Shown here in pieces: positions 14,861 through 40,451 of a stretch of 44,382 bases of DNA. The notes below the pieces were generated by a model. That model worked only from the letters and a program-made list of their open reading frames with translations. It searched no databases and had not been told where the DNA came from. Source of the DNA: Thermomicrobiales bacterium (GTDB lineage Bacteria; Chloroflexota; Chloroflexia; Thermomicrobiales; UBA6265); contig JAPXRQ010000003.1 of the NCBI GenBank assembly GCA_033813515.1, positions 1 to 44,382 of the forward strand, in the 5' to 3' direction. Position numbers and translations under genes: made by a program. Positions within the stretch are counted from its first letter, which is position 1, and every line of letters begins with the position of its first letter.

Positions 14861-14866
14861 CTCACC

Positions 14867-17788
14867 CTACGGTTCTGGCGACGCGATTGGGGTACCCGGT
14901 CCTTCCCTGGCTTCAACCGGACCAAGCACGGTCAACTGACCCGACTCTGTCGTGCACAGAATCACCCCGCTCGGCCCGACCGGGAAGAGGACATCGGAGC
15001 AATTTTGACTGTCCAGGGCAAAGGTCCAGAGCACCTGGTGCGTCACCGCATCCCATCCCTCCAGGACTTCATCACCGATGGTCTCTGTACCCCAGTTCAT
15101 GACCACAATCTGGTCCCATTCCGCGAGATAACCGATGACGATTCGAGGTACGTCATCTTTCTGTTGCCAGATCATGGAACCATCTACGAGCGAGAACCAG
15201 GCGACGGCGCAGCACTGCTCGGTTATGGGAACCGGCGTGCCCACAAGCGACGACTTGCTGGCCGCAAAGTAGAACGAATCCCCTCCGGTCAGAACCGGAT
15301 ACTGACCCAGGAGTGCATCGGTGGACCAGATTTCGCTTCCGTCCCTAGCCGACCAGAGTGCCAATGTCTCGGCCGGCATTTCAGCGCCAACCGGATAACG
15401 GGATATCACGACCAGCGGCCCGCGCTCAGTTGCGACGCTGTAGGCCGCGATGAACTCCTCAGGCGGGACGATCTCCAGCAGGTTACGGCTCCAGATGACC
15501 TCACCAGTGGCAATGTCCAATGCTGTCAAAGTTGCGGTCAGATAGTCGGAAACATAGACGGTCTCCCCATCAGACGTCACTATCGGACCGCGATCTTCCC
15601 GATTGAACATGCAGGCATTGCAGGTCGGCTCTATCGTCAGTCCTGGCGCCAGGACACGATCGTAGTCGTACGCCCATCGTTGCTGGCCGGAGGAGAAATC
15701 GAGCGCAGCGACATGTCCCGTTCGATCGCTGACAAGAATCGTATTCCCGGTGACATTGACACCCAGCTGACCCCAGGCATCCGGAGCGGCGAATGTTGCG
15801 TCGGACAGTTTCACGATTCGACCATCTGCTGAAGCGAGCACTGCTACCCGCAATATCGTGCTGTCGAACCTGTCCTGGACAAGGGTAACGACGCCGCTGC
15901 TGGTAACCATGTAGGGCGCGAATGTGGATATCTGCGTCTGCCAGATGAGGTCGCCGCTGCCAAGGTCGCGGGCCATGAGGTATGTGGTGCCATCAGCTTG
16001 CGCAGAACTCGTGGAGTAGACGTTGTAGCGATAGACCGTAGCGAACGGATCGTCGGTTTGGATTGCGTTGCTGTCAGCAGCCCAGATCGGCTGGTAACTG
16101 GCGTCGCTGATTGGCAACCCACGGATCTGGCTGCCACCGGTTGCATCGCCATTGACCTGATATGGACCCGGATAGTCATCTGCAGCAACAGGCGAGGCAC
16201 TGACCGTCCTGGTATCAGATGGACTGATTCGCGCAACAACAGGTCCGTCCGATCCTCCCCAACAGACAGCCAATCCATCCGAACTCAACGGAAAGGTAAT
16301 TTGGCAGGTGTTCGCACCCTGCGACACTTCCCATTTGATGTCACCGGTGGTCGCATCCAGTCCCCACGTCCGGCGCGGAGCATCGTACTCCTGGACGACC
16401 ACAGTCTTATCTGATGCCAGGTATCCGATAACTGAGCCAGCATTGATCGGCTGGAACCAAAGCAACTCGCCAGTTTTGTTCTCGACCGAAGCGACTGCAT
16501 ACTGATCGCCAACCATCATTTGGCCAAACAGCTGGTGTCCATCCGACGCCGCAACCATGGACATCAACATAGTGGAACTTGAAAGTGTGTCGCCTGATGC
16601 CCCACTAACGACAAACTGGCTTGGAAGCTCTGAAGTGAAGTCGGCAGTTGTTTGCTGGACGGCATAAACCACATTGTCATCGGCCGTGGTCACAACTCCA
16701 AACGGCGCTATGACAGCGGTGGAGCTATGCACATCCTGCGCAGACTGAACCCACCGTTCGTCTCCTGAGGCCGCATCGATCGCCCGGATCGTCATCGTGG
16801 CAGCATCAGCCACAAACACAGTGTTCGCTGTGATGGCAACCGGCATGAAGTAGTCCGTGCGCAACTGGCAGTCTGATTCGTCGAAAGCCCAGCAGATTCG
16901 ATCTTCGAACCCGGCTGCAAGTTCTCGTTTGAACGAGTACAACCACCGCTCGGCTCCGGTAGCCAGATCCAGCGCCACGATCAGTCCAGATCGATCGACT
17001 AGGTATAGATTGGCTCCCTCAACAATCAAGTGATACCCATAGGCATCCGCCTTGCCGTCGAAAACGCGGTCCACTTCCCAAATGGTTTTCCCGGTATCGC
17101 GATCGAGCAACGCGATGTCATATGGAGGATTCTTGGCATTAGTCGGAGTCGACTTCGCATTCTCAGGAACGATCAGCGCAACCACACCTACCGATGTTGC
17201 GGCCAGTTCCGACCACGACGAAACCGACCTTTGCCACATCACAGTGCCATCGGAAGCATCGAACGCAGTTAGCGGACGGTAAAAAGCGTCTGAACCGTCA
17301 TCGTGAATGGCATAGAGATATTCGCCGGACATCAGCATCGGGTAATAGGACGCAGCCGCCCCACCCGGAAGCTGCCAGGCCATTTCCGGCGTGCCCGAAA
17401 CTGGTGCTGGACCCGGGAACTGGTTGTCCTGGGCCGCCGTCCCGCCGTATTGCACCGTCGGCAGGTCCTCCTCCGGCGCAGTAATGGCAGTCGGAGAGGC
17501 CGGAGCGCTCGATCGCTGCGTAGTGCTGGCCAGACCGCCGATCATCGCCAGCAGCAATGCCGCCACCGCCGCTAAATCCAGCAGCTTCCGCCTGTTCGAG
17601 ATCGATCGCATCCGGATCACAGGCCGACCAATCTCGGCCGGTCGCGCGGTCACAACGGCGACAGTCTCGCCGCTCATCGCTGCAGCCAAAAATGCCGCTT
17701 CCAGCCGGTTCGCAAAGACCGGACTCGGATCGGTTGCTGCCTCAAATCGGCTCAGTGGTCCCGTGTTTACCGCGAGTTCATTTGCCAT
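14867..17788 (-). CDS. Membrane-anchored double PQQ-like beta-propeller protein, putative anti-sigma/sensor partner of the upstream ECF sigma
   Basis: 973 aa. A short cytoplasmic N-terminus is followed by one TM helix (LLDLAAVAALLLAMIGGLAS). Two roughly 430-aa ectodomain modules are rich in x-A-(L/I/F)-D-x-x-(T/S)-G-x-x-x-W repeats, for example LTAFDASDGTVMWQ and IVALDLATGAERWL. The start overlaps the sigma gene by 22 nt. Confidence 0.75.
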   Translation of the reverse strand: MANELAVNTGPLSRFEAATDPSPVFANRLEAAFLAAAMSGETVAVVTARPAEIGRPVIRMRSISNRRKLLDLAAVAALLLAMIGGLASTTQRSSAPASPTAITAPEEDLPTVQYGGTAAQDNQFPGPAPVSGTPEMAWQLPGGAAASYYPMLMSGEYLYAIHDDGSDAFYRPLTAFDASDGTVMWQRSVSSWSELAATSVGVVALIVPENAKSTPTNAKNPPYDIALLDRDTGKTIWEVDRVFDGKADAYGYHLIVEGANLYLVDRSGLIVALDLATGAERWLYSFKRELAAGFEDRICWAFDESDCQLRTDYFMPVAITANTVFVADAATMTIRAIDAASGDERWVQSAQDVHSSTAVIAPFGVVTTADDNVVYAVQQTTADFTSELPSQFVVSGASGDTLSSSTMLMSMVAASDGHQLFGQMMVGDQYAVASVENKTGELLWFQPINAGSVIGYLASDKTVVVQEYDAPRRTWGLDATTGDIKWEVSQGANTCQITFPLSSDGLAVCWGGSDGPVVARISPSDTRTVSASPVAADDYPGPYQVNGDATGGSQIRGLPISDASYQPIWAADSNAIQTDDPFATVYRYNVYSTSSAQADGTTYLMARDLGSGDLIWQTQISTFAPYMVTSSGVVTLVQDRFDSTILRVAVLASADGRIVKLSDATFAAPDAWGQLGVNVTGNTILVSDRTGHVAALDFSSGQQRWAYDYDRVLAPGLTIEPTCNACMFNREDRGPIVTSDGETVYVSDYLTATLTALDIATGEVIWSRNLLEIVPPEEFIAAYSVATERGPLVVISRYPVGAEMPAETLALWSARDGSEIWSTDALLGQYPVLTGGDSFYFAASKSSLVGTPVPITEQCCAVAWFSLVDGSMIWQQKDDVPRIVIGYLAEWDQIVVMNWGTETIGDEVLEGWDAVTHQVLWTFALDSQNCSDVLFPVGPSGVILCTTESGQLTVLGPVEAREGPGTPIASPEP

Positions 17789-18369
17789 GATGGGCTCTCC
17801 TCTGATTCCCTGATTGCGTTCCGCATCGCGGTCCTCTCCCGGGACAACATCGACTCGGTTGCGTGTTCGGACTTGCCGATCATCGCGGCGATATCCCGCA
17901 CGGCATAGCCATCCAGATAGCGCAGCAGCAGCACGGCCTGGTACTGAACCGGCAGCACCGACAGCAGCTGGAAAAGTTCGTCCCGATCGGCAATTTGATC
18001 AAACTCGTTGCTGAAATCGGGAATCTGTTCGGCAGTGAGCGTCCATTCGGATCGGAGGTCAGCTCGAGCCGCCTCCGCCCGGTAGTACATGAGCACCTTG
18101 TTGCGGGCGATACCAATCAGCCAGGCTGTTGGATCGGAAACGCGATAGTGATCGCGCGGCCACTGAATCGCAAACGCAAGAAAGGTCTCGCTGGTCAGGT
18201 CCTCGGCAACGGCGGCATTGCCAGCAACCCGGAGCAGGATGAATCCGTACACCTGCGGGAGTGCCGTCCGGAAAATCGCCGCCAGGGCATTTGCGTCGTC
18301 GCGGGGCACAGCATCACCTGCGTCCGCCTGCGCATTGGCCGTGATTTGCGTTCCACCCTTCGCCCTCAT
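17767..18369 (-). CDS. ECF-type RNA polymerase sigma-70 family factor (sigma 1)
   Basis: Region 2 (VYGFILLRVAGNAAVAEDLTSETFL) and region 4 (LLLRYLDGYAVRDIAAMIGKSEHATESMLSR). The ATG at 18369 is chosen by length comparison with the paralogs. The track ORF starts at TTG 18417. Confidence 0.85.
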   Translation of the reverse strand: MRAKGGTQITANAQADAGDAVPRDDANALAAIFRTALPQVYGFILLRVAGNAAVAEDLTSETFLAFAIQWPRDHYRVSDPTAWLIGIARNKVLMYYRAEAARADLRSEWTLTAEQIPDFSNEFDQIADRDELFQLLSVLPVQYQAVLLLRYLDGYAVRDIAAMIGKSEHATESMLSRERTAMRNAIRESEESPSWQMNSR

Positions 18370-18483
18370 ACAACAAGATTGCGCGACACCAGCCAAATCC
18401 GTCGCCCAACGCAGCAATTCGTTGTGGAGATTTCGTACCGGCCATTCGTCACGGCGGTCCGTACGGGCGATTCATGACACCGA

Positions 18484-18729
18484 ACCGCGCCGGCGATTTT
18501 TGGACCGATGCCTGCCGCCGATTCTTGCGGCGATCGTCAGATCGCCCATCCATCGAAGGCATACGCACAAACCGGCCACCCAACCCATCCACCGGCAACC
18601 CCAACGACGCATCGTAAGGCGGATCCCCCGTGGTCCGCCGCCGGTCTTCGCCGCACCCATTCGCATGCGGTAACCACGGTCTCCGATCACCCAACCCGGC
18701 CGACGGCAACCAGTCGACGGGCACAAGGC
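18484..18729. repeat. Approximately 245-bp noncoding repeat, copy B (directly 3' of double-propeller gene 2, upstream of sigma 1)
   Basis: See copy A. It ends 12 nt from the stop codon at 18741. Confidence 0.8.
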
Positions 18730-18740
18730 ACCGCTTTACA

Positions 18741-21629
18741 TCACGGATCGACAGGCGCGAAAACGGCCAACCTCCCATCGGCATTGGTGCAAACGACTTT
18801 TCCAGATGCGTCGATCGGAAACTCAACCTCCAGGCACTGCTTGCCATCGGTCACAAACATGAACACCTGCTCATGTGTCGTCGCGTCGATCCCGAGAATC
18901 GTTGTTCCGCTGGCTCCGTCAACACCATCAACCCCGTCGATTGATGACGCCGCCATCGGGCCGGCCGAGTTCGTAATCAACACATTGCTGCTGGTCAATA
19001 TCCCGATCACCGTTCGCGGCAACTCGTCCCCTGGCGTCCAGATCAATGATCCGTCGGCAAGTGAATACTCAGCGAGAAAGCAGCAAATCTCGGAATCTGG
19101 TGACGTGGCAGGAGTGCCGGAGATACGGGATTCTGACAGTGATGCGTAAAACGTTCCGTGATCCGTCACGGCCAGACCACTGACAATCGAAAAGTCGACT
19201 TTTTGCCAGACCGTCGAACCATCGTCCGAAGACCACAGGCCCAGAATCATTCCTCCATCGCCCTTCGCTCCGGATACGGTCATGATGCCGACCAGTGGAC
19301 CTTCCGGTGTTGCTGAAATCCACGCGTTGAAAAAGTCATCTGGCGGTACGAGGTCCAAAGATGATCTCTGCCAACGCATGTCTCCTGTCGAAAAGTCCAG
19401 TGCCGTTGCCATGCCACTGAGCACATCGACCATGAATACCGTCCGGCCATCAGTCGAGAGATATGGGGCAAACCCGGCTCGCGGGACACAGATCTCACAG
19501 GTGGCGTAGTCGTTCATGCCCGGACCCAGCACCCGATCAACGGTGTTTTTCCAAAGCAGCGTGCCCGTGCCCATATCGATCGCCGCTATCTGCCCCGAAA
19601 CGTCGCTGAACAAGATGGTCGTTCCGCTCACAATCAGAAAGGTGCCCGAGGAAGTTTGGGGAGGTAGCACTGAAACATCGCTCGCCAATGACCTACGCGA
19701 GCCATCCAGGTTGAACAAAGCCACCCGGAGTACAGAAGAGTCGGCGGGATCTCTGACCAGGGTCACGATGCCCTGACTCGTCACAACATACGGGACATTC
19801 TTCGGAATCGGCTGTTGCCAAAGGGCCTCACCGGACGACAAATCCTGCGCAGTCAATTGGACATCGCCATGCGCATCGGCGGCCGTGGTCGAATACAGCA
19901 CCGTGCCGAAAGAAGTTGCGAATTGATCACTGGATTGCCGTGACCAATCCTGCACCCACGTCGCCGAATACTGGCCACTCGTGAGTGTCGGACCAGTTAT
20001 CTGGCCGGAACCGGTCGGATCGATGCTGGAGTCAATCGCATCTGCCGAAGGGTTCTCGTCCGGGGTCGACACGTCGGCACGCGCAGCAGAGCCATACATA
20101 CGAGCCGTGTTTTCAACTCCAAGGCAAACAAACGAACCGTCATCGGCGATAGGCAATGACAGGATGCAATTGAGCGATTCAGGAATCTCCCAGAGCGTCT
20201 CACCTGTTTCCGGTCGAAACCCAATCGTTCGCAGTCCGTCACGCCCCGACGCAAGAATCAGCGCATTGTCTCGCGACGAGTAACCACGCAGGTATGCCGG
20301 GAAATCGCTTTCCCATTTTTGCTCGCCATTGTTCAGATCATAGGAGCGAACCTTCGAATCATCACCAATGATGAAATTTACATAAAGATTCGATCCATCA
20401 GTCGAAATCGTGCTGTCGAACTCTCCAGAAAGCTGCCAACGTTCGGCCCCATCTGCAGAGTCGAAAACCTGCAGGACCATCACAGGAGCATCCTGCGAAC
20501 CTCCTGAGGAACCCAATTCCGAAATCGAAACAATCTCAGGTGTCGTGGGCGGTTCTTCCGCCGTGGTAACGAGCACAACTCCGTGCGGAATGGCCACCGG
20601 AAGTGTGAATACATCAGCTGGGATCAGACTTCCCTGCGCCAATTGCCTCCATTGCTCAATCCCATCATCGATTCGCACTGCAACGATCAGGCGAGATCGA
20701 GGATTGAAGACATAAAGCAATCCTGATCCCAGCGCAGTATTCAAACGCACATTTGTATTCGAAGGATCAGTTGAAGCAAAGACCCAATTTTCGGAGCCGG
20801 TTTGCAGGTCGAACTTGATCACGTTACCCATGCGATCAGGCATATAGACAGCATTGTCATCAACAAGCATCCGGTGTGCAGAATCCAGTGACCAGTTCTG
20901 AAAGACACGTGTGCTTATCCAGATTGGCTCGCCAGTTTCTTTGTCCAGGAGTGTCACTGAAAACGGCGGTTGCAGAATGCCATCTCCGCCACCAGACGAA
21001 TAGACCCGCGTTGTCACGACTCCAGCGTCGGTCAGGATGAAGTCGACGGTGCTTGCCACCTCTGCCCGCCATCGTTCCGCGCCTGTGATGCGATCGTACG
21101 CAACCACCTGACTTGTGGTCAGTTTGTCTACCGGATGTTCCTGAACATAGACGAGATCGTCACCGAAGAACACAGGGCTTCTCCACACATGCGTGGCGCT
21201 CGGAAACTGCCAGTCTTCCTGTGGGTTCGCGCCGTTCGGGACACCACCGGTGTAATTCAGATCCCGGGCCGGTGATCCTCCAATCATTTGGATCGAATTG
21301 GCAGTCGACGGTGCATTAATGGTTGGAAACACGGACGAATCGGAAGTGTCCCGCCTCAGGCTGGATAGACCCGCCAGCGTCGCAATGAGCAGTACTGCCG
21401 CCGCCGCAATCGAAAGCATCCGATATCTCGTGGTGATGCTGGGTTGTTTCGATGTCCGCATAACCTGCCAGCCCGTCGGGACACCCCGAGCCGCACCAGC
21501 TCCGGATGCATCCGCCGCTCCCATTGCGCCGAGCATTTCTCCGCGCAACCGGCCGGCAAACCCCGCCTCGGGCTGCGCCGGACGATCCAGATCGGCCAGG
21601 GCCTGATCAATCAACTGCTCCGTCGTCAT
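18741..21629 (-). CDS. Membrane-anchored double PQQ-like beta-propeller protein, putative anti-sigma/sensor partner (paralog 2)
   Basis: 962 aa with the same layout. TM helix YRMLSIAAAAVLLIATLAGL. Repeats such as VVAYDRITGAERWR, VIKFDLQTGSENWV and IAAIDMGTGTLLWK. ATGA overlap with the sigma 2 stop. Confidence 0.75.
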   Translation of the reverse strand: MTTEQLIDQALADLDRPAQPEAGFAGRLRGEMLGAMGAADASGAGAARGVPTGWQVMRTSKQPSITTRYRMLSIAAAAVLLIATLAGLSSLRRDTSDSSVFPTINAPSTANSIQMIGGSPARDLNYTGGVPNGANPQEDWQFPSATHVWRSPVFFGDDLVYVQEHPVDKLTTSQVVAYDRITGAERWRAEVASTVDFILTDAGVVTTRVYSSGGGDGILQPPFSVTLLDKETGEPIWISTRVFQNWSLDSAHRMLVDDNAVYMPDRMGNVIKFDLQTGSENWVFASTDPSNTNVRLNTALGSGLLYVFNPRSRLIVAVRIDDGIEQWRQLAQGSLIPADVFTLPVAIPHGVVLVTTAEEPPTTPEIVSISELGSSGGSQDAPVMVLQVFDSADGAERWQLSGEFDSTISTDGSNLYVNFIIGDDSKVRSYDLNNGEQKWESDFPAYLRGYSSRDNALILASGRDGLRTIGFRPETGETLWEIPESLNCILSLPIADDGSFVCLGVENTARMYGSAARADVSTPDENPSADAIDSSIDPTGSGQITGPTLTSGQYSATWVQDWSRQSSDQFATSFGTVLYSTTAADAHGDVQLTAQDLSSGEALWQQPIPKNVPYVVTSQGIVTLVRDPADSSVLRVALFNLDGSRRSLASDVSVLPPQTSSGTFLIVSGTTILFSDVSGQIAAIDMGTGTLLWKNTVDRVLGPGMNDYATCEICVPRAGFAPYLSTDGRTVFMVDVLSGMATALDFSTGDMRWQRSSLDLVPPDDFFNAWISATPEGPLVGIMTVSGAKGDGGMILGLWSSDDGSTVWQKVDFSIVSGLAVTDHGTFYASLSESRISGTPATSPDSEICCFLAEYSLADGSLIWTPGDELPRTVIGILTSSNVLITNSAGPMAASSIDGVDGVDGASGTTILGIDATTHEQVFMFVTDGKQCLEVEFPIDASGKVVCTNADGRLAVFAPVDP

Positions 21630-22165
21630 CGCGTGCTCTCCTCCGGATCGAGATGCTGGCGCAGGCTGCGTCGGGCCCGGACCAAATGCGCCTCAATCGC
21701 GTGCTCGGTTTTGCCAGTCAGGGAGGCAATCGCACGGACGCTCAAACCGTCCGTCCATCGCAGCAGGATCAACAGCCGGTGCAAATCGGGCAGCGTATCG
21801 AGCGCGGCCAGCAAATCAGCCCGGTCGATTGCGGCGGCAATGCCATCCCGCGGTTCGACTGGCTCCGGAATGGCATCCAGATCCAGGCTCGCTCCTGTCC
21901 AGAGGGTTCGGTGATGATCGACGATCTTGTGCCTGGCCGTGCCGTACAGCCAGGCCATCGGCTGCTCGATCGATTTGCCGTCCGCAACCGCGCGGGACCA
22001 GGCCAGAAAGGTCTCCTGCGTCAGATCCTCCGCCACCGGGGCGTTGTGCCGGACCCGAAGCAGGATGTACCCATAGATCCGCGGCAGATACTCGGCCAGC
22101 ACCGCATCAACCGCAGCAGCCGAACTATCCGCGTGGATTGATTCCGATTGCCGCCGAGCAACCAT
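21626..22165 (-). CDS. ECF-type sigma factor (sigma 2)
   Basis: 179 aa. IYGYILLRVRHNAPVAEDLTQETFL and LILLRWTDGLSVRAIASLTGKTEHAIEAHLVRARR. GGAGGAGG lies upstream. Confidence 0.9.
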   Translation of the reverse strand: MVARRQSESIHADSSAAAVDAVLAEYLPRIYGYILLRVRHNAPVAEDLTQETFLAWSRAVADGKSIEQPMAWLYGTARHKIVDHHRTLWTGASLDLDAIPEPVEPRDGIAAAIDRADLLAALDTLPDLHRLLILLRWTDGLSVRAIASLTGKTEHAIEAHLVRARRSLRQHLDPEESTR

Positions 22166-22238
22166 CCCGAAACCTCCTCCCTGTTAAGGAAGTCGGAGAA
22201 ATCTGCGGTTTCCGTTAAGCGTCACAGGTTCCGCACGA

Positions 22239-23774
22239 TCAGGTCTCGGGCGTGGACGATATTGGGGTCGGAACGTAGTAGCCCAGCGAATTGCTCGCCG
22301 TCTTGTAACAGAGCAGGGACCCATCGGGATTAATCGGATACAGAATCCCGCAGGAGTCCACGTCCACCGTCGCAGTCACGGTCAAGGTGTCAGGATTGAT
22401 GACGCTTGCCAGCCCGTTCCAACTCTGGACAATGATCAGGTCCGCTTCTGCGAGATACAACTTCTGCCCGTCGATGGTGTCTGCGTTTACCTGTTGTTCT
22501 ACGAGGACAATGCCCGTAACCGCATCCACCACCAACGCCACATCTCCGCTGACCATCAGCACCCGCGTGCCGAGGGAAAGCGCCGACCAGGAATTCCCGC
22601 CATCGAAATCTCTAATCCAAACGATCGAGCCGTCTTTGGCGGAGAGCTGAACGACTGTGTCGGAAAGTGACGCACCATCGGTCGATTGGTTGGGATCTGT
22701 CCAAAGATTGGCATACAGCAAGGGACCAGCCGATGTTGCACCGAGCAAACTCGCCACGCGCAGAGACTGCATCGCCGAGTCTTCGTTCTGAATGACCGCC
22801 AGTGCATCTACCGACCAGATCTTGTGGCCGTCGGCAATGTCCAGGCTGGTGATGGTCATCTGATCGGCGTTGAACAGGAAGAGCGTCGTCTCGGACATTT
22901 CCATCCGGGAGGTGCAGTTCATGCACGCGCCTCCACCTGTCGTGGTGGGGGTGTATTGCCAGCGCTGCATGCCATTCGCGAGATCGATTCCGGCCGCGTA
23001 ACCCGTGGAATCGGCATAGAGAATGGTCGAACTGGAAACGGCAATTTGGTAGCGAAGCGTGTGCCGATAGGTCTCCGGCGATGACCAAATCGGCACTCCC
23101 GTCGTGTGATCCAGCAGGGCGATCCGCAGCCCTGTTCCACCTTGCCAATCGGGCACCAAAACCACCACACCATACCGCGTTGCGATCACCTGTTGGGAGT
23201 CGCTGATTGTCGCTCGCCAGCGCTCGGCACCCGTATCCGTTGAAAGTGCGATCAGATGCGCCGCCGTTCCAGAGGTTCCGAGCGGTTCGATTCGATAGAT
23301 ATTGGGACCGAAAAGAAGCGATTGATTGGCTGTGTCCGCCGAAGCATCGACCGACCACTGCAGCACATATGCGCCGTTTTGCGGAGCCGGACCCAGGACA
23401 TTGCTGGCAAGAATGTCGCTTGCCGTCATGCTCCGGGTTGCCAAATCAAACCCGGTCGGAACAGTCAGCGGACCGGCGATCAACTCCTCCGGCGCGGCTA
23501 TCGAATCCAGATCGTCTATCGGATCCTGGCTGGTGTTGATCCGCAATACGGATAGCAATGACAGCAACACAATCGCAGCAATCGCAGCCCATCGACCGAG
23601 TGTGGACCAGCCGCGTAAACCCGGACCGCTCGACTGCAATCTCCGGATCGGACGCTCTGTCATATCGATCTTTGCATAGACCGCCCGGAGTTGTTCATGC
23701 AGTTCGATCGATGGGGTTGCCACGTGGTCGAACTGGGCAAACGACCGTTCCATGTTTGGGAAATGCTCAGTCAT
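22239..23774 (-). CDS. Membrane-anchored single PQQ-like beta-propeller protein, putative anti-sigma/sensor partner (paralog 3)
   Basis: 511 aa. TM helix WAAIAAIVLLSLLSVL and one ectodomain module (LIALSTDTGAERWR, AAGIDLANGMQRWQ, ITSLDIADGHKIWS). ATGA overlap with sigma 3. Confidence 0.75.
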   Translation of the reverse strand: MTEHFPNMERSFAQFDHVATPSIELHEQLRAVYAKIDMTERPIRRLQSSGPGLRGWSTLGRWAAIAAIVLLSLLSVLRINTSQDPIDDLDSIAAPEELIAGPLTVPTGFDLATRSMTASDILASNVLGPAPQNGAYVLQWSVDASADTANQSLLFGPNIYRIEPLGTSGTAAHLIALSTDTGAERWRATISDSQQVIATRYGVVVLVPDWQGGTGLRIALLDHTTGVPIWSSPETYRHTLRYQIAVSSSTILYADSTGYAAGIDLANGMQRWQYTPTTTGGGACMNCTSRMEMSETTLFLFNADQMTITSLDIADGHKIWSVDALAVIQNEDSAMQSLRVASLLGATSAGPLLYANLWTDPNQSTDGASLSDTVVQLSAKDGSIVWIRDFDGGNSWSALSLGTRVLMVSGDVALVVDAVTGIVLVEQQVNADTIDGQKLYLAEADLIIVQSWNGLASVINPDTLTVTATVDVDSCGILYPINPDGSLLCYKTASNSLGYYVPTPISSTPET

Positions 23775-24331
23775 GATCGTGCTCCTGTCATTGGTCCCTG
23801 CTCACGAAGAGCCGCTCGCCCCCTCGCCAGAAGCGATTCGATGGCGTGTTCCGATCGGCCGAACTGTGCGGCCAGGTCCGCAACCCTTAATCCGTCGCAG
23901 TAGTGCAGGATGAGCACTGCTTGTTGCATCGGCGGCAACGGCGATAACAGGCGGCGCAATTCGTCGGCATCAAGAACACGGGCAAAATCGTGCTCTTCGC
24001 TCCTGCCAATGTCATGGTCGGGCCATGGATCGATCGGAACGGTCCGTTGCTGGTGACGGAAGTGATCGATCACCTTGTTGCGGGCGGTGCCAAAAAGCCA
24101 TGCCATGTGATCTTCGACTGCAGCACGTTTCGACTGAAGTACCTGCGCCAGGGCGATCATGGTTTCCTGGGTCAGATCCTCCGCCAATGCCCGATCGTTT
24201 CCCACCCGAACCAGGATGTAACCGAAAACTCTGGGAAGCGCGTGCTCGAGGAGATCAACAGCGTCGACCGCTTTGGTAGCCGTACCAGGCGCGTTCCGGA
24301 TATTGGGTATGACCGTCATGGACTGTGTCAT
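23771..24331 (-). CDS. ECF-type sigma factor (sigma 3)
   Basis: 186 aa. VFGYILVRVGNDRALAEDLTQETMI and LILHYCDGLRVADLAAQFGRSEHAIESLLARGR. Confidence 0.9.
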   Translation of the reverse strand: MTQSMTVIPNIRNAPGTATKAVDAVDLLEHALPRVFGYILVRVGNDRALAEDLTQETMIALAQVLQSKRAAVEDHMAWLFGTARNKVIDHFRHQQRTVPIDPWPDHDIGRSEEHDFARVLDADELRRLLSPLPPMQQAVLILHYCDGLRVADLAAQFGRSEHAIESLLARGRAALREQGPMTGARS

Positions 24332-24361
24332 CGAATCGCCTCCTCAAACCCCTGGAATGTG

Positions 24362-24391
24362 AGTCGATCAGCGTGTCGAAAATCCGTCGTT
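24362..24391 (-). promoter_or_regulatory. Candidate ECF-type promoter AACGAC-N19-CGACT upstream of sigma 3
   Basis: The minus strand reads AACGACGGATTTTCGACACGCTGATCGACT. It shares hexamer, TTTTCG block, spacing and CGACT with the sigma 4 upstream region. Confidence 0.4.
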
Positions 24392-24619
24392 GGAAAGGGC
24401 CATGTGGCAGAGATGCCACCTGTCGTCGAACTGACTTGGTGCTGTTCTCGAGAACGGAAGGCGGAAGGGGAACGAAAGAAGAGCATATTATCGTGACATA
24501 AAGTCTCTCATTTTCTAAATGTGTGAGGGTTCTCCAATGGTGCCGTTTTCCGCCTCAATTGCAAACACGTCTGGATATGCCGCGCTGTTCGCTTCTGGCG
24601 CCCCTTTTCCGCTTCCCTT

Positions 24620-24682
24620 TTACCTCCTACCTCTTTCCTCTTACCTCTTTCCTCTTGCCCCTTACCTCCTACCTCTTACCTC
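24620..24682. repeat. Nine tandem heptamers (TTACCTC CTACCTC TTTCCTC TTACCTC TTTCCTC TTGCCCC TTACCTC CTACCTC TTACCTC)
   Basis: Read directly. It abuts and overlaps the stop codon (24681-24683) of the minus-strand regulator gene. Confidence 0.9.
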
Positions 24683-25982
24683 AGACAGGAATCAGCGCCC
24701 GCTCGCTTCTCGCAAATGCCCGGATCGTTTTCAGCATCCCGTAGATCGCCCTGCCATCCGAATCCACTGCCACCGTCAGCAGGCTGCGATCAACCAGCCC
24801 GTGCAAAACTGGCAGTAATTCGCTCATTTCCTGGCCTGTGTGGGCGGCCAGTTCTGCTACCGTCAATCCGTCTGCTGCCGTTGCCATCGCGCAGAAAAGC
24901 CACTGCTCATCTTCCGAACACTGATTTATGCTCCACGTGAATGCATCGATCAGGCTCTGATGCCGCTCCGGTAAATCCCTCGCCCCGTCACTGAGCAGCG
25001 CGAACCGATCCCGATCCAGTTCCGCCCGAATTGCCGCCACCGGCAACATTCGCACACGCGCCGCGGCCAACTCAATCGCCAGCGGAATCCCGTCCAGCTC
25101 CCCACAGATCGCAATCACATCAGCCAGATTTTCAGCATCGATCTCGAAGTGCGGCGAAACAGCCCTGGCCCTCGCCCGGAACAGCGCCAATGCCGGGTAA
25201 TCATTGACCAGCATCGGATCCGTCAGATCAGCATCATCCGGCGGAACTGACAACGGGCGAACCGGATAGACCTGCTCCCCCTGCAGACACAGCGGGGATT
25301 GACTGGTCGCAATCACGGTCATGCTCGGGCAGAAATGGAGCAGATCGGTCATATCAACCGCCGCATCCATCAGGTGCTCGAAGGTATCCAGCACCAGCAC
25401 CAGGAACTCCCGCTCCTGCACCTCGTGGATTACCGCCAGCGGATCACGATCACCACACGGGCTTCCCTGAATCGCGGTCGCCACCAACGGCAGCACCTCG
25501 GTCGGGTTGGTCACATCAGCCAACGCCAACGAGACGATGCGGGATCCATGTCTGCGCGCAATCTCCTCCGCTACCTGCATACCCAGGCGTGTCTTTCCGA
25601 TTCCAGCCGGACCGACCAGGGTAACCATGCAAAGATTGGCGCGCTTGGCCAGCACGGCCAGTTCCCGGACCTCGAAATCCCGCCCGATCACTTCATTCCC
25701 CGGAATCTGAACCGGTTCAACCTGCGCGGCCGGGTGCCTGGGCAGGCTGGCGTACCGGAGCGATTGCTGCAGATCCGCGCGCATTGCCTCGTCCAGATCC
25801 AGGCCCCGACAAAGAGCTTGTACGGTGTGGAGCTGAGGTCGGGTTCGGGTGCCACGCTCGAGCGTGCTGATCGCCTGGACGGAGAGTCCGCAACGCTCAG
25901 CCAATGCCTGCTGCGTCAGACCAGCGTCCTCGCGCAATTGCCGAAGCAAGCGCCCAAATGTGGTTTGTTGGGATTGCTGCAC
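24681..25982 (-). CDS. XRE-family HTH plus P-loop NTPase (NB-ARC/STAND-like) transcriptional regulator; start uncertain
   Basis: HTH FGRLLRQLREDAGLTQQALAERCGLSVQAISTLERG. Walker A VTLVGPAGIGKTRLG. Walker B-like FLVLVLDTFEHL. The GTG at 25982 follows AAGAGGTGG; the track ORF extends to 26186. Confidence 0.7.
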   Translation of the reverse strand: MQQSQQTTFGRLLRQLREDAGLTQQALAERCGLSVQAISTLERGTRTRPQLHTVQALCRGLDLDEAMRADLQQSLRYASLPRHPAAQVEPVQIPGNEVIGRDFEVRELAVLAKRANLCMVTLVGPAGIGKTRLGMQVAEEIARRHGSRIVSLALADVTNPTEVLPLVATAIQGSPCGDRDPLAVIHEVQEREFLVLVLDTFEHLMDAAVDMTDLLHFCPSMTVIATSQSPLCLQGEQVYPVRPLSVPPDDADLTDPMLVNDYPALALFRARARAVSPHFEIDAENLADVIAICGELDGIPLAIELAAARVRMLPVAAIRAELDRDRFALLSDGARDLPERHQSLIDAFTWSINQCSEDEQWLFCAMATAADGLTVAELAAHTGQEMSELLPVLHGLVDRSLLTVAVDSDGRAIYGMLKTIRAFARSERALIPV

Positions 25983-26292
25983 GAAGGCCACCTCTTGCCG
26001 TGTGTGCCTGTAGTCGCTCAATTGTATGGGTGCTTGTACAGGTGTTGTCGCTGTCCGCCCAATCCCGGCACTGGCAGGATAGGGAGCGGTTCGAATCCGG
26101 ATGATGCGGAGTTGGGCGCCGAATGGGTCGGATCGGGGTGAATCGGCCACAGACGGAATCTGACTCCGGATCGACCGGATACCCAATTGCCAGCCCCCTC
26201 AGAAGCAGGATCACGATCAACAGCGCCGCCCGGGCGTGCTGTTCGGATCCCGCGCGGGCTGGTCTGGTTGCTCACATGACAGAGAGGACACC

Positions 26293-27963
26293 ATGCGTTT
26301 TGTTCAGATGTGTGTCGTGCTGGCGTTACTTGGCGTTTCCGCCTTGACCAGCCTGGCCACCGTTTCTGCCGCCAATTCCTGCACGATCGGCGGCATCAAA
26401 TACACCGTCACGATTAGCGGCTCCGGCACAATCAACGGCACTAACAATGCCGATGTCATCGCCGGCTCCAGTCTCGACGACAAGATCTTTGGCGGCGAAG
26501 GCAACGATGTCATTTGCGGCAACGGGGGCGCCGATACCATCGAAGGCGGCTCAGGCAATGACCTGATCAGTGGCGGCACCAACCGGGACTCCATCAAGGG
26601 CGATCTCGATTCCGACCGCATCTATGGAGGCGATTCCGATGACAGCCTTGATGGTGGCGACGACATCGATTACATCTTCGGCGAGGCCGGCAACGACACT
26701 CTGGTCGGCAACTTCGGCGATGATCGCCTCTATGGCGGAATCGGCAACGACCGTGTGTACGGCCGCACCGGCTTCGATTATCTGTACGGGGAGGATGGCG
26801 ACGACTACCTCTCCGGGGCCAGCGACAGCGATCTTCTCTCGGGTGGGCCAGGCAATGACACTCTGACCGATACCACCGGCGGCGTCTATGCCCAGGGTGG
26901 ACCGGGGAACGACATTATCACCGGCAGCACCGAAGAGAAGAATGCCCTCTATGGCAACGAGGGGAACGATGTCCTCGTTGCCCAGTCTCAATCGGTCGTC
27001 TTCGGCGGACCGGGGAATGATGATCTGACCGGCAGCGCTGAGGATGATTACCTGATCGGCGACGACGATGCCCCGGTGGAAGCAAGTGCAACCTTCTCAT
27101 CCGCCGCCGAAGGGAGCGATGGTAATGATGTTCTTCGCGGTGGTGCCGGCAACGACAAACTTCTCGGCAACGGCGGCGATGATCGCCTGGCCGGAGAGGA
27201 TGGCGACGATCGTCTCGATGGCCAGGATGGCAACGATACGTTGACGGGTGGTATCGGAAGTGACCTCCTCAATGGTGATGCCGGACTCGATCGCATCTAT
27301 GGTCAGGATGGCGATGACACCATCGATGGCGGATCCGATGCTGATCAGATCTCGGGCTCAACCGGTGATGACGATATCTACGGCAACAATGGAAGCGATG
27401 TCATCGATGGCGGCGCGGGTGCTGATTCAATCTCGGGCGACAGCGGCGATGATCAGATTCATGGTGGAACCGGAGACGATGAAATCTTCGGCGGAACTGG
27501 CGCCAATGTGATCTTTGGCGGTCCGAACGATGATGTCATTCAGGGCGGCAAGTCCATTGACCAGATTGATGGCGGCGCCGGTAACGACACTATCGACGGG
27601 TATGACGGTAACGACCTTCTTCTCGGCGGAGAATCCGGCATCGATACGATTGTCGGCGGCGATGGGGACGATCTGATCGCCGGCGGAACCGAAAACGACA
27701 TCATCAATGGTGGCTACGGCAATGACACCATCAATGGTGAACTCGGCGATGACAAGATCAACGGTGATACCGGCACCGACAAGATCCACGGGAACGATGG
27801 CAACGATGTTCTCCAGGGATCGGATGGTGAGAACGATCTGGTCTACGGTGATGCCGGCAACGACAAACTCGATGGCGGAGAAGGTCTCGGCGACTACTGC
27901 TCCGGCGGAACCGGCTCCGATGCCGCCGATCCCAATTGCGAAACAACCAACAGCATTCCATAG
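26293..27963 (+). CDS. Secreted calcium-binding repeat protein (RTX-like), paralog of 1581..3266
   Basis: ATG at 26293 after AGAGAGGA. Signal peptide MRFVQMCVVLALLGVSALTSLATVSA. The same VTISGSGTINGT entry motif and GGxGxD repeats, and the same C-terminal DYCSGG...C-E-T ending. Confidence 0.85.
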   Translation: MRFVQMCVVLALLGVSALTSLATVSAANSCTIGGIKYTVTISGSGTINGTNNADVIAGSSLDDKIFGGEGNDVICGNGGADTIEGGSGNDLISGGTNRDSIKGDLDSDRIYGGDSDDSLDGGDDIDYIFGEAGNDTLVGNFGDDRLYGGIGNDRVYGRTGFDYLYGEDGDDYLSGASDSDLLSGGPGNDTLTDTTGGVYAQGGPGNDIITGSTEEKNALYGNEGNDVLVAQSQSVVFGGPGNDDLTGSAEDDYLIGDDDAPVEASATFSSAAEGSDGNDVLRGGAGNDKLLGNGGDDRLAGEDGDDRLDGQDGNDTLTGGIGSDLLNGDAGLDRIYGQDGDDTIDGGSDADQISGSTGDDDIYGNNGSDVIDGGAGADSISGDSGDDQIHGGTGDDEIFGGTGANVIFGGPNDDVIQGGKSIDQIDGGAGNDTIDGYDGNDLLLGGESGIDTIVGGDGDDLIAGGTENDIINGGYGNDTINGELGDDKINGDTGTDKIHGNDGNDVLQGSDGENDLVYGDAGNDKLDGGEGLGDYCSGGTGSDAADPNCETTNSIP

Positions 27964-28027
27964 GAGGGCCGAGCTGCAAGGACGAAACTGATCGCAGCTA
28001 CCCCTAAACACTGCGACGCGTCCGCCG

Positions 28028-28062
28028 TCACCCTTCACCCCTCACCCTTCACCCCTCACCCT
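28028..28062. repeat. Five tandem heptamers (TCACCCT/TCACCCC alternating)
   Basis: Read directly, in the intergenic region between RTX-like gene 2 and sigma 4. Confidence 0.9.
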
Positions 28063-28066
28063 ATCA

Positions 28067-28096
28067 AACGACAGTTTTCGCCCACACCGTCCGACT
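28067..28096 (+). promoter_or_regulatory. Candidate ECF-type promoter AACGAC-N19-CGACT upstream of sigma 4
   Basis: AACGACAGTTTTCGCCCACACCGTCCGACT. The 9-mer TCCGACTTC (28090..28098) is also found upstream of sigma 2 (22189..22197, minus strand). Confidence 0.4.
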
Positions 28097-28118
28097 TCTC
28101 CTTTAATTGGAGGATCGG

Positions 28119-28679
28119 ATGGTGGCGGTTACGGGCAACATGGTGGCACCAGGCAAATTACGCCGGTTCGGGAAAGCAACGGATCAGGACCGCGAGCGCG
28201 CCGCCTTCCTGTCCGAAATGCTTCCCCGCATCTACGGCTACATTCTGCTCCGGGTCAATCGCGATCCAGGTATCGCGGAGGATCTGACCCAGGAAACCCT
28301 GCTTGCCTATACCCGGCAGCAGCAATCCGGTGTTGCCATCGCCAATCCCACGGCCATGCTCTTCGGGATCGCCCGGCATAAGGTGATCGATTGGTATCGG
28401 ACCCGCGTCATGCTCACCGTCGATGCGGACGAGACGCTCGGGGTCATTGATCCGGTCGATGATCTCGACCGGGTTCTGCAGCGGGATGAACTGCTCCGCT
28501 ATCTCGATCAACTCCCACCCGGGCAGCGCATGGTCCTCATCCTACATTACGCCGATGGCCTCAGTGCCGCCGAAATCGCCGCGCATCTCGGGAAGACCCG
28601 GGATGCCGTCGAATCGCTCCTCGCACGTGGCCGGCGTGCCATGCGTCAACTCGCCAGCAATCAGGGTGAAGCACGATGA
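28119..28679 (+). CDS. ECF-type sigma factor (sigma 4)
   Basis: ATG at 28119 after GGAGGA. IYGYILLRVNRDPGIAEDLTQETLL and LILHYADGLSAAEIAAHLGKTRDAVESLLARGRR. The track ORF starts at TTG 28107. Confidence 0.9.
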   Translation: MVAVTGNMVAPGKLRRFGKATDQDRERAAFLSEMLPRIYGYILLRVNRDPGIAEDLTQETLLAYTRQQQSGVAIANPTAMLFGIARHKVIDWYRTRVMLTVDADETLGVIDPVDDLDRVLQRDELLRYLDQLPPGQRMVLILHYADGLSAAEIAAHLGKTRDAVESLLARGRRAMRQLASNQGEAR

Positions 28680-30283
28680 CCAACAACGATCAGAACCTGC
28701 GCGATTCCTTCCGCTCTTTCGACCAGCCCGCGCATCCCCCGTCCGCATTGGCCAGCTCACTCGGCCTGGAAACTCCAGTCCATCGCCGATCAACCTGGGC
28801 AATCTGGACTGCCGCGGCTGCTGCCCTACTGATCCTGCTCGGCGCAGCTGCCATGCTCCTGAATACCCAATCTCCCGACTCCCGGTCGCAAGATGTAATT
28901 GCCGGGCAAGTGATTGCCGCTCCAGGTGGAACGCCAGTCGCCAGTCCATCTCCCACGCATGACTCTTCTGCCGTCATGTTTGGTGGCACTGCTGCTCAAA
29001 CCATCAGCTACCCCGGACTAGCTCCGGATCCCGCCAATCTTCAGAAGCTGTGGGAAACCGCAGACAACGTGATTGGCGATCCCATGTTTTACGGGGATGC
29101 GCTCTACGTGCTCGGGTATCCGGAAGGCGATCAGGATTTCGACACGTCTCTCACGGCCTACGATGCCGCCACTGGCACATTGCGCTGGCAGACGAATGTG
29201 GCCAGCGGACAATTCATGGCCATCGATCAAAACGGAATCTACGTCGCCATCACAGCCGAAACCAACATGCACTCATTCGCCCGATTGGATGCCGCTTCCG
29301 GGCAAGTCATCTGGCAAACACAGGAATCTGTCCCCAATAGCAATCTGCTTTCCGATGTCCTGTTGGTCAGCGACAACACGCTTGTCGTTGTCCATGGCAA
29401 TCAGACGCTACTCGCCTTCGACAGTGCAACGGGCGTCAAAACCTGGGAGTGGCATGCCGCTGGTGCTGGCGCGATCGACTGCACCTATCTCCCGTGCGGA
29501 GCGACTCCAGCGATTCGCGACGGCCAGGTTTATCTGCTCGATTGGTCCAGTAATCAACTGGTCGCGCTCGATCTTGCCACCGGCACCGATCGCTGGAAAG
29601 CACCATTCCTTTCCGATGCCGATTACGCAGATGCAATTACCGCCAGTGCAACCCTGACCGCGGCAGGACGGGATTCAGGTGGGATCTCGTCAGATCAGGT
29701 GCCGTTCTTCCGCTTCTACCAACTTTCCGCAACTGCATACGGACCCGTCCTGATTGAGTTCAACTGGCAGGATCCGCAGAACTACCCAACAGTCATCCAT
29801 CTCTACACTGCGAAAGACGGCGCTTTGGCCTGGAACCGAACCATGGCAATCTCGACCTGGACTCAGTTCGCCATCAGTGAGACCACTCTCTACGCCGCAA
29901 CCCAAAGTACGGCAGAAGGAGCAAAACCGACTCTCGCATTGATTGATCTCGCAAGTGGCACGGATCTCTCAAGTCACGAAATCGATCTTGATCGCGTTCA
30001 CTGGTCGCAGATGATCTACCTTCCACAGGCAAACATGCTTATCACCGGTACCAACGCCGCAACTGGCTCATCTTCGACTCTCTCACGAATTCCGATCATT
30101 GGCTCGTGGTTCGGGAGCAATGACTCCGAAGCGACCATCTGGCTGATCGACCCGACGACACTGGAGGCACGGGGCAAGGCAACATTCAAGAACTGCTATG
30201 TTGCCAGCACCTTTTCTCAATCCAGTCAGATCGTCTGCCAAAGCACGAGCGGCAAGGGCTTCGCCGTCTACGGCACTCCGTAA
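28676..30283 (+). CDS. Membrane-anchored single PQQ-like beta-propeller protein, putative anti-sigma/sensor partner (paralog 4)
   Basis: 535 aa. TM helix TWAIWTAAAAALLILLGAAAMLL and one ectodomain module (LTAYDAATGTLRWQ, FARLDAASGQVIWQ, LLAFDSATGVKTWE, LVALDLATGTDRWK). ATGA overlap with sigma 4. Confidence 0.75.
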   Translation: MTNNDQNLRDSFRSFDQPAHPPSALASSLGLETPVHRRSTWAIWTAAAAALLILLGAAAMLLNTQSPDSRSQDVIAGQVIAAPGGTPVASPSPTHDSSAVMFGGTAAQTISYPGLAPDPANLQKLWETADNVIGDPMFYGDALYVLGYPEGDQDFDTSLTAYDAATGTLRWQTNVASGQFMAIDQNGIYVAITAETNMHSFARLDAASGQVIWQTQESVPNSNLLSDVLLVSDNTLVVVHGNQTLLAFDSATGVKTWEWHAAGAGAIDCTYLPCGATPAIRDGQVYLLDWSSNQLVALDLATGTDRWKAPFLSDADYADAITASATLTAAGRDSGGISSDQVPFFRFYQLSATAYGPVLIEFNWQDPQNYPTVIHLYTAKDGALAWNRTMAISTWTQFAISETTLYAATQSTAEGAKPTLALIDLASGTDLSSHEIDLDRVHWSQMIYLPQANMLITGTNAATGSSSTLSRIPIIGSWFGSNDSEATIWLIDPTTLEARGKATFKNCYVASTFSQSSQIVCQSTSGKGFAVYGTP

Positions 30284-31251: not shown

Positions 31252-31351
31252 ACTCCCGCAAACCCCTCCCGCAGATACAGCGTCATCAGCCAGCGCTGAC
31301 AAACCAAATCGCGGCCACAAATCAACATTTCATCAAGCAAACCTGTCTCGA

Positions 31352-40413: not shown

Positions 40414-40451
40414 CCACCGCCGCTGCCTGGGCCGGTAGGATGTCGAGGGTT

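Follow-up and report, generated by a model that had tools for sequence, protein, structure and literature searches.

Four ECF sigma factor genes, each overlapping the gene of a putative propeller-bearing anti-sigma factor, in a Thermomicrobiales genome

Pairs of an extracytoplasmic function (ECF) sigma factor and its anti-sigma factor make up the third of the major modes by which bacteria transduce signals, and for most ECF groups we know of no established sensor or mode of anti-sigma binding. Here we analyze a stretch of 44,382 nucleotides (nt) from a Thermomicrobiales bacterium of the phylum Chloroflexota (contig JAPXRQ010000003.1 of assembly GCA_033813515.1, positions 1 to 44,382), referred to below as the window. 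Between positions 14867 and 30283, four ECF sigma genes, S1 to S4, each overlap the gene of a single-pass membrane protein, P1 to P4, whose large C-terminal part is predicted to form one or two β-propellers outside the membrane. The sigma genes, the architecture of their partners, the distribution of the pair in other genomes and the variation of the locus between close strains are described in turn, and the likely role of the partners as anti-sigma factors is weighed against the alternatives.

Sigma genes and overlapping partner genes

The eight genes are listed here with protein lengths in amino acids (aa) and with coordinates in the window.

17767–18369, minus strand: S1, ECF sigma factor, 200 aa; Pfam Sigma70_r2 and Sigma70_r4_2, TIGR02937 above cutoff
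14867–17788, minus strand: P1, putative anti-sigma factor, 973 aa; N-terminal motif, one transmembrane helix, two PQQ_2 propellers; 22-nt overlap with S1
21626–22165, minus strand: S2, ECF sigma factor, 179 aa; Pfam, TIGR02937
18741–21629, minus strand: P2, putative anti-sigma factor, 962 aa; N-terminal motif, transmembrane helix, two propellers; ATGA shared with S2
23771–24331, minus strand: S3, ECF sigma factor, 186 aa; Pfam, TIGR02937
22239–23774, minus strand: P3, putative anti-sigma factor, 511 aa; one propeller; ATGA shared with S3
28119–28679, plus strand: S4, ECF sigma factor, 186 aa; Pfam, TIGR02937
28676–30283, plus strand: P4, putative anti-sigma factor, 535 aa; predicted eight-bladed propeller; ATGA shared with S4

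All four sigma proteins (179–200 aa) match Sigma70_r2 (PF04542) and Sigma70_r4_2 (PF08281) above the Pfam gathering score and reach 63–73 bits with the ECF superfamily model TIGR02937 (cutoff 42.9). The open reading frames (ORFs) and both sets of models thus confirm the four ECF-type sigma genes, at unchanged coordinates, that a first-pass annotation of the window had reported. No NCBIfam model narrower than TIGR02937 reaches its cutoff for S1–S4, which are 39–46% identical to one another. The nearest PDB chain is sigma-BldN (6dxo_A, E 5.9e-18, covering the sigma-2 part only), followed by SigL of M. tuberculosis. The 'BldN family' model TIGR02952 is the top or near-top NCBIfam match of all four at 67–79 bits, but its equivalog cutoff of 206.45 is not reached, and an assignment as BldN orthologues (group ECF121) was rejected on that ground. 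Two further characteristics of ECF sigma factors were considered: a co-transcribed regulator in the next (+1) position is represented by the overlapping partner in four of four cases, and an autoregulated promoter by conserved −35 and −10 elements before S2, S3 and S4, not before S1. In the main text of the ECF-Hub re-classification (Casas-Pastor et al. 2021), a partner of PQQ, propeller or WD40 type is not mentioned; this broad clade of sigma factors could well figure in the ECF-Hub catalogue already, with a partner entered as 'putative anti-sigma factor'.

The overlaps are as first claimed, the start codon of the partner lying over the stop codon of the sigma gene, as ATGA in three pairs and with 22 nt in S1/P1. 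A GGAG-like Shine-Dalgarno sequence stands 6–10 nt before the starts of P1–P3, still within the terminal part of the sigma gene, and P4 has only a weak GGGTGA as ribosome-binding site. Each partner contains a single strongly hydrophobic helix (aa ~68–90 in P1, 69–92 in P2, 57–80 in P3 and 39–65 in P4), and PF13360 (PQQ_2) scores 63–119 bits on P1–P4, above its cutoff of 27.6 in all four, in agreement with their description as single-pass membrane proteins with a PQQ/BamB-like ectodomain. A Pfam check of the pairs by hidden Markov model (HMM), which the first-pass annotation had suggested, accordingly recovers sigma regions 2 and 4 on one side and PQQ_2 on the other. Two propeller modules are present in each of P1 and P2, every module closes with a conserved Cys pair, and the partners in the window are 21–30% identical to one another. 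The A-x-D-x-x-[TS]-G-x-x-x-W repeats that had been ascribed to all partners are present in P1 (five strict copies), P2 (four) and P4 (three); the strict form does not occur in P3, which therefore carries degenerate copies only. A looser form of the repeat is counted 10, 8, 5 and 4 times in P1 to P4, respectively, with one of the P3 copies located in the cytoplasmic N-terminus.

The fold of the ectodomain was explored with an AlphaFold2 (AF2) model of P4, computed with a 20-sequence family alignment and compared with the PDB using Foldseek. The model (mean pLDDT 78.8, pTM 0.75) has two short N-terminal helices of low confidence (6–15 and 23–28, pLDDT ~60), a transmembrane helix at 41–61 and a disordered tether at 61–96, after which ~32 predicted strands make up eight four-stranded blades. 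Tetrathionate hydrolase, BamB and Bacillus YxaL lead the Foldseek matches with a probability of 1.00. The target-normalized TM-score is 0.63–0.67 for BamB versus ~0.4 for PQQ dehydrogenases, all matches being 10–15% identical in sequence, and the P4 propeller is BamB-sized (~420 aa), whereas the catalytic propeller of the dehydrogenases comprises ~570–600 aa. Models specific to PQQ-dependent dehydrogenases (TIGR03075 and TIGR03074) score 16–43 bits on the partners against cutoffs of 480 and 833, and those specific to BamB (TIGR03300 and NF008351) 35–79 bits against cutoffs of 285 and 423, so that neither assignment was retained; BamB-type lipoproteins were rejected as well, the N-terminus consisting of a cytoplasmic motif and a transmembrane helix with no lipobox. 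Since the enzyme and BamB equivalog scores are far below their cutoffs, and given the order of the Foldseek matches, the ectodomain is, according to the model, a BamB/YxaL-like eight-bladed propeller, non-enzymatic and not a PQQ enzyme. The partners thus do not appear to be unrelated periplasmic enzymes, a case that the first-pass annotation had set against its own proposal: the enzyme-family scores are far too low and the fold is nearer to BamB.

The N-terminal motif and its sigma neighbors

Ahead of the hydrophobic helix, each partner has an N-terminal segment of 38–68 aa, which we propose as the sigma-binding element.

17588–17788, minus strand: cytoplasmic N-terminal segment of P1, aa 1–67, proposed sigma-binding element; conserved motif
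21426–21629, minus strand: cytoplasmic N-terminal segment of P2, aa 1–68, proposed sigma-binding element; conserved motif, contains LADLDRPAQPEAGFAGRLRGEML
23607–23774, minus strand: cytoplasmic N-terminal segment of P3, aa 1–56, proposed sigma-binding element
28676–28789, plus strand: cytoplasmic N-terminal segment of P4, aa 1–38, proposed sigma-binding element

P1–P4 share in this segment a motif of ~35 aa, h-x-x-h-D-x-P-x-x-P-x-x-x-F-x-x-x-L, which is clearest in P2. Its occurrence elsewhere was followed in two scans that had the sigma alignment as their sole query, one of GTDB species genomes and one of JGI metagenomes, with 80 loci taken from each (160 in total). Top identity among the matches listed was 44–45% in both scans, which sampled relatives of up to 45% identity, and the closest sigma relatives among the matches listed (≤44% identity) belong mostly to metagenome-assembled genomes of Actinomycetota. 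An HMM of the motif detected it in the +1 ORF of 64 of the 81 sigma-like ORFs scored at the loci of the genome scan, and of 39 of the 75 scored at those of the metagenome scan; the consensus in these related +1 ORFs is approximately D-P-[FL]-x-x-L-R-x-P-x-x-P-x-x-P-x-P-x-F-A-x-x-L-R-x-R-L. In many Actinomycetota the motif is followed, with no transmembrane helix, by one to three glyoxalase-type (VOC) domains, and at other loci by a transmembrane helix and then either a TolB-like propeller of the PD40 family or ectodomains that no Pfam model matches. That the motif stays with the sigma factor while the C-terminal domain changes argues, at the level of sequence, for the motif as the anti-sigma element that binds sigma and for the propeller as an exchangeable sensor.

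Relatives of the partners themselves lead to the same sigma neighborhood. Word-indexed protein searches with P4 and with partner alignments returned nearly all generic PQQ proteins, the only family members being one motif-bearing protein (P0001) plus one propeller protein lacking the motif (P0167). An exhaustive HMMER search with a partner profile over 1.84 billion cluster representatives gave 25,805 matches at E ≤ 0.001, again mostly PQQ-repeat proteins of a generic kind; of the 150 top-ranked matches, each representing one 50%-identity cluster, 28–29 combine the motif, a transmembrane helix and one to four propellers in 494–1771 aa. Wherever the gene context of a motif-bearing propeller relative could be read (six of six), the gene is located directly behind an ECF sigma gene, which it overlaps by 4–22 nt.

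P0001: ECF sigma gene upstream, overlapping
P0068: ECF sigma gene upstream, overlapping
P0032: ECF sigma gene upstream, overlapping
P0051: sigma gene upstream, cut by the contig end, region 4 visible
P0033: ECF sigma gene upstream, overlapping
P0129: ECF sigma gene upstream, overlapping

The metagenome scan contributed a further sigma/propeller case (L099), and the motif-less P0167 has an ABC transporter and no sigma gene upstream. Tandem arrangement recurs as well: a 1.26-Mb ENA contig (L092/L093) contains three head-to-tail sigma/propeller pairs, and the gene order in another locus, L090, is sigma-propeller-sigma. As both pairing and tandem order recur in unrelated contigs, the association is far beyond chance. 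S2, S4 and, weakly, S1 are nearer to their L093 counterparts (44–56%) than to their paralogues in the window, which indicates that the duplications are old and the array a lineage trait. Exact-sequence look-ups of S1 and S2 for further partner alleles gave nothing useful. Two proposals of the first-pass annotation are strengthened by this survey of co-occurrence. The multiplied module reappears as a tandem array, with three pairs in L092/L093, and the interpretation of the partners as cognate anti-sigma factors gains from a motif common to +1 partners with unrelated C-terminal domains and from a sigma gene adjacent to six of six motif-bearing relatives. On this comparative evidence, the partners are very probably cognate single-pass anti-sigma factors.

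With respect to described anti-sigma domains (ASDs), no class I family (RseA/RsrA/ChrR, zf-HC2, with four helices in at least 50 aa) is among the partner matches at E ≤ 0.01, no Cys/His motif of the H-x3-C-x2-C type is present in the N-termini of P1–P4, and the 'antisigma' model NF052375 scores 23.5 bits on P4, far under its cutoff of 100. The motif profile does not match the partner chain of 6dxo, RsbN, at E ≤ 10. By its size and by the two helices predicted for it, the element is similar to domains of class II (CnrY/NepR), which hold sigma-2 and sigma-4 with two short helices; this comparison draws on the two short P4 helices at pLDDT ~60, and there is no sequence similarity to the solved class II proteins.

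Promoters, strain variation and surrounding genes

Putative promoters were recognized upstream of three of the pairs.

22191–22216, minus strand: putative ECF promoter for S2-P2, AACGG-N16-CGACT, with 25 nt between it and the start codon
24362–24388, minus strand: putative ECF promoter for S3-P3, GACGG-N17-CGACT, with 30 nt between it and the start codon
28070–28096, plus strand: putative ECF promoter for S4-P4, GACAG-N17-CGACT, with 23 nt between it and the start codon

Together they define the pattern RACRG-N16-17-CGACY, 23–30 nt ahead of the start codons of S2, S3 and S4. Upstream of S4, the sequences of the window and of a close relative (contig L081, described below) are diverged and then become near-identical from a few bases before the −35 element on. 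The motif derived from the window is also found upstream of sigma genes elsewhere, namely at both in L090, at two of three in L093 and at the single one in L099. All its matches in L090 (both) and L093 (both) are directly upstream of sigma genes, while the background frequency is 0.85 per 10 kb in 1.4 Mb of other loci. Because a motif defined in the window recurs at the sigma genes of independent loci, the putative autoregulation of the S2, S3 and S4 operons is well supported by sequence comparison. A first version of the pattern, AACG-N15-22-CGACT, gave 5 matches versus 2.85 expected, which is not above chance, and was replaced after the comparison with L090/L092/L093. In one distant pair of sigma and propeller genes, GCAAGCATCCAGATG is repeated in tandem four to five times directly upstream of the sigma start (L089:700–840); these copies stand in place of RACRG...CGACY and may represent a different regulatory input in that lineage.

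The first-pass annotation had raised the possibility that the modules control the surrounding surface-protein genes, and this part of its proposal found no support in the window, where RACRG...CGACY is absent from the RTX, LPNTG and other genes and not enriched. The only other strict match in the 44-kb window falls in a perfect palindrome at 6893–6922 (GACGGGTCGTGTCCGAACGCACGACCCGTC), just past the solute-binding-protein gene at 5932–6867; the palindrome is probably a terminator, and its own sequence makes the match an artefact. Allowing one mismatch, a scan of 31 upstream regions in the window gave 5 matches where ~3.4 would be expected, and RTX and LPNTG genes accounted for none of these. 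The promoter test at neighboring genes is a weak one, since the specificity of each paralogue may have shifted.

A close relative is represented by the contigs L081, L175 and L178 (Logan runs ERR147906xx), which are 92–95% identical to the window in nucleotide sequence and have the same gene order. Identities of the encoded proteins between window and relative are as follows.

S1: 98% aa identity
S2: 98% aa identity
S3: 100% aa identity
S4: 94% aa identity
P3: 96% aa identity
P4: 91% aa identity
P1, first 100 aa: 90–94% aa identity
P1, ectodomain: 20–30% aa identity
P2, first 50 aa: 94% aa identity
P2, remainder: ~10–28% aa identity

The divergence in P1 and P2 is confined to well-delimited regions, bordered on the 3' side by a repeat.

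14870–17402, minus strand: P1 ectodomain-coding region with no nucleotide homology to the relative
18744–21456, minus strand: P2 ectodomain-coding region, present in a single-propeller version in the relative
14640–14866, minus strand: copy 1 of a ~215-nt repeat, from directly after the P1 stop codon
18510–18740, minus strand: copy 2 of the ~215-nt repeat, from directly after the P2 stop codon

Nucleotide homology with the relative ends at window positions 17403 (P1) and 21457 (P2) and resumes in the ~215-nt repeat located 3' of both genes. The two repeat copies are 80–88% identical, whereas the genes that precede them are only ~30% identical in protein sequence; the repeat is non-coding, occupies the same positions in the relative and ends in a GGCGATC-TGAC-GATCGCC hairpin. 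It was also considered as a structured RNA and rejected, with no Rfam match and folding z-scores of 0.72 and 0.15. P2 has 962 aa and two propellers in the window versus 534 aa and one propeller in the relative, where the P2 N-terminus is joined to a P1-like transmembrane segment. The P1 allele of the relative (L175:773–3693, on 12 contigs) is split into ORFs of 799 and 174 aa that overlap by ATGA and sum to 973 aa, exactly the length of P1 in the window; either the allele is a pseudogene with a frameshift, or the split is a sequencing artefact that recurs consistently. As the variant alleles were seen on 12 and at least 24 independent contigs, they are not assembly chimeras. The simplest reading of these sequences is that the ectodomain was replaced by recombination, with conserved flanks on either side, and the ~215-nt repeat may have served as a recombination arm.

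The surroundings of the pairs are largely as first annotated. The XRE/AAA regulator at 24681–26186 (minus strand) and the two RTX proteins at 26236–27963 (plus strand) and 1581–3266 (minus strand) were confirmed, and a gene for a GH38 mannosidase is also located in the neighborhood. Of the anchored proteins that had been described as a HYR-LPNTG family, LPNTG sorting signals were recovered in at least four ORFs, while HYR is limited to one ORF with a weak Pfam match. Between 8515 and 12703, tandem paralogous genes with a period of ~1.07–1.15 kb (repeat families D2, D8, D10, D12 and D13) encode proteins of ~300 aa with a C-terminal LPNTG signal and a hydrophobic tail, as in sortase substrates, among them the one weak HYR match; a further copy of this gene family is present at 30364–31320 (minus strand). 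GC content is 0.57–0.59 across 16–32 kb versus 0.60–0.62 in the left flank. Farther along the window, direct repeats of 61 nt at 37073–37133 and 40360–40420 (89% identical) bracket a 3.3-kb segment in which GC content dips to 0.50 (38001–40000) versus 0.58–0.62 elsewhere. The segment encodes a 995-aa protein (37335–40322) with no Pfam match, a PADLOC scan of 37–40 kb found nothing, and it looks like inserted foreign DNA with duplicated ends. At the end of the window, repetitive coding sequence with a 30-nt period (GTGAAGGTCTTCGTCGGCGTGTT...) at 43361–44382, within the ORF at 41841–44369 (minus strand), specifies a low-complexity repeat protein.

A putative signaling module, its alternatives and its counterparts

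Taken together, the data are best accommodated by four paralogous, separately insulated ECF sigma/anti-sigma modules that sense through a propeller and release sigma upon a signal, a reading to which we assign a probability of roughly 70%. The N-terminal motif (~35 aa, probably two-helix) would bind and sequester the co-translated sigma factor, and the anti-sigma factor would continue from this motif through one transmembrane helix and a disordered Pro/Ser/Thr/Ala-rich tether to one or two propellers, which may serve as the extracytoplasmic sensor of a ligand or of damage. A signal from the propeller would lead to sigma release, via regulated proteolysis of the tether and transmembrane helix or via a conformational change, and the freed sigma factor would transcribe its own operon from RACRG-N16-17-CGACY (pairs 2, 3 and 4) and presumably a regulon elsewhere. 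The sensor ectodomain would be the evolvable part, with the same motif placed on unrelated output domains across the sigma clade and with the P1 and P2 ectodomains apparently exchanged between near-identical strains.

Several results weigh against this model. No model in Pfam or NCBIfam scans of the window and of diverse partners covers the motif, and a profile of 58 motif sequences searched against the PDB, including the anti-sigma chains of ECF complexes, found as its best match an unrelated protein at E 0.09. The motif is degenerate in P3 and P4, and the cytoplasmic segment of P4 has only ~38 aa. The region upstream of S1 contains neither RACRG...CGACY nor a Shine-Dalgarno sequence, the window yielded no member of a regulon apart from the operons themselves, and site-1 and site-2 proteases did not turn up there, no search having been aimed at them.

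Unlikely in our estimation, although several observations would fit it, is the alternative that the propeller proteins are not anti-sigma factors but the main sigma-dependent output, as receptors, adhesins or scaffolds, with the motif used for membrane targeting or another contact and the sigma factor controlled in some other way. The ectodomains vary between strains, as do surface-exposed proteins under diversifying selection, the neighborhood is rich in secreted and anchored proteins, the sole promoters found drive the operons themselves, and the motif is unlike any solved anti-sigma factor. However, the motif also heads soluble cytoplasmic VOC partners and transmembrane partners with unrelated ectodomains, always in the +1 position of a related sigma gene, a pattern that membrane targeting can hardly account for and that anti-sigma domains typically show. 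In addition, the start/stop overlaps imply roughly 1:1 synthesis, and P0167, the propeller protein that lacks the motif, lacks a sigma neighbor as well.

There is still less reason to regard the pairs as passengers on an island that was acquired laterally or is prone to recombination, multiplied by recent segmental duplication without diversification and with some copies redundant or decaying. The slightly lower GC content at 16–32 kb than in the left flank, the ~215-nt repeat after both P1 and P2, and the split (799 and 174 aa) P1 allele of the relative are compatible with such an origin, but the paralogues are old (39–46% identity among the sigma factors and 21–30% among the partners, with S2, S4 and S1 closer to L093), none of the eight ORFs is disrupted in the window, three pairs have a conserved promoter of their own and the arrangement is syntenic in the relative. 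That the partners act in the periplasm as membrane-anchored enzymes, either PQQ-dependent or similar to tetrathionate hydrolase, and are only incidentally co-transcribed with sigma genes, is highly improbable: the Pfam PQQ/PQQ_2 matches, the presence of tetrathionate hydrolase and PQQ alcohol dehydrogenases among the top Foldseek matches and a vicinal Cys-Cys pair that P1 and P2 have in their C-terminal modules are outweighed by PQQ-dehydrogenase family scores of 16–43 bits (cutoffs 480–830), by a ~420-aa propeller of BamB size and a TM-score in favor of BamB, by an ectodomain identity of 20–30% between near-identical strains that would be unusual for a metabolic enzyme, and by a window with no PQQ biosynthesis or cytochrome partner genes.

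In principle, the four modules would work like the classical switch of an ECF sigma factor and a membrane anti-sigma factor, to judge by analogy with described systems. The sigma-BldN/RsbN pair of Streptomyces venezuelae (ECF121, class III, PDB 6DXO) likewise consists of an ECF sigma gene followed by that of a single-pass membrane anti-sigma factor. RsbN has a cytoplasmic domain unlike the canonical ASD, a cytoplasmic region of 117 aa with three helices and a minimal binding region of residues 1–91, and an ectodomain with no known function, and its homologues are reported to be restricted to Streptomyces (PMC6101532). The window proteins differ from it by their segments of 38–68 aa and their ~35-aa motif, and were not accepted as RsbN-type class III anti-sigma factors, given these segment lengths (versus at least 90 aa) and a motif profile that misses the RsbN chain. 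A very short two-helix cytoplasmic element ahead of a transmembrane helix, as the AF2 model of P4 predicts, is reminiscent of CnrH/CnrY and NepR (class II), although the latter have no sequence similarity to the window motif. Only a tiny part of CnrY is periplasmic, and sensing is left to a separate protein, CnrX; in the window, by contrast, a putative propeller ectodomain of 420–900 aa is fused to the anti-sigma factor.

The sigma-I/RsgI system of cellulolytic clostridia, namely Clostridium thermocellum and relatives, is reported to comprise several paralogous, autoregulated pairs with a conserved sigma-binding part and varied extracellular sensors (PMC6582324). It is similar to the present locus in the presence of multiple sigma/membrane anti-sigma pairs per genome with diversified sensors, but sigma-I is not an ECF factor, and the RsgI ectodomains are carbohydrate-binding or related domains and not propellers. 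Moreover, sigma-I/RsgI is linked to a defined regulon, the cellulosome genes, whereas for the window sigma factors only their own operons were found. A PQQ_2-type eight-bladed propeller as a non-catalytic module outside the membrane has parallels in AfsK-type Ser/Thr kinases, BamB and YxaL. The AfsK model NF053615 matches the window partners at 1e-6 to 1e-9 and their relative P0129 at 1e-18; the transmitter of AfsK, however, is a kinase as opposed to an anti-sigma motif, and the window partners are not lipoproteins. In Planctomycetes, some ECF groups reportedly have WD40-type repeats on the +1 partner, which would likewise place a propeller-type ectodomain on a putative membrane anti-sigma factor beside an ECF sigma factor, with a different propeller family, phylum and, probably, ASD type. 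A literature search returned no paper linking ECF anti-sigma factors to PQQ or propeller ectodomains. What sets the locus apart from these systems is the short motif not covered by existing models, the propeller as putative sensor in tandem arrays and the swapping of that sensor between strains.

The ~35-aa motif tracks a large sigma clade across phyla and is a candidate for an anti-sigma domain of a new type, small enough for quick testing. If the modules operate as proposed, the locus would be a clear case in which a BamB-like propeller provides an ECF pathway with its extracytoplasmic input and has been multiplied in tandem, with diverged specificities; at present it offers no explanation for the neighboring surface-protein genes. 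The natural alleles, in which the sensor is replaced while sigma factor, motif and transmembrane helix remain 90–100% identical, could reveal what is sensed and how modules are exchanged. A further step, which we put forward as a tentative idea, is that sigma factor, motif and transmembrane helix form a constant chassis onto which the propeller is loaded as a cassette by homologous recombination, the conserved DNA encoding the N-terminus and transmembrane helix acting as 5' arm and the ~215-nt repeat as 3' arm, and that the motif defines a structurally new and widespread anti-sigma class. Should this be correct, sensor shuffling of a kind not described for ECF signaling would give rise to populations that carry alternative sensor alleles on one ECF pathway, and the motif class would extend over Actinomycetota, Chloroflexota-like bacteria and Patescibacteria.

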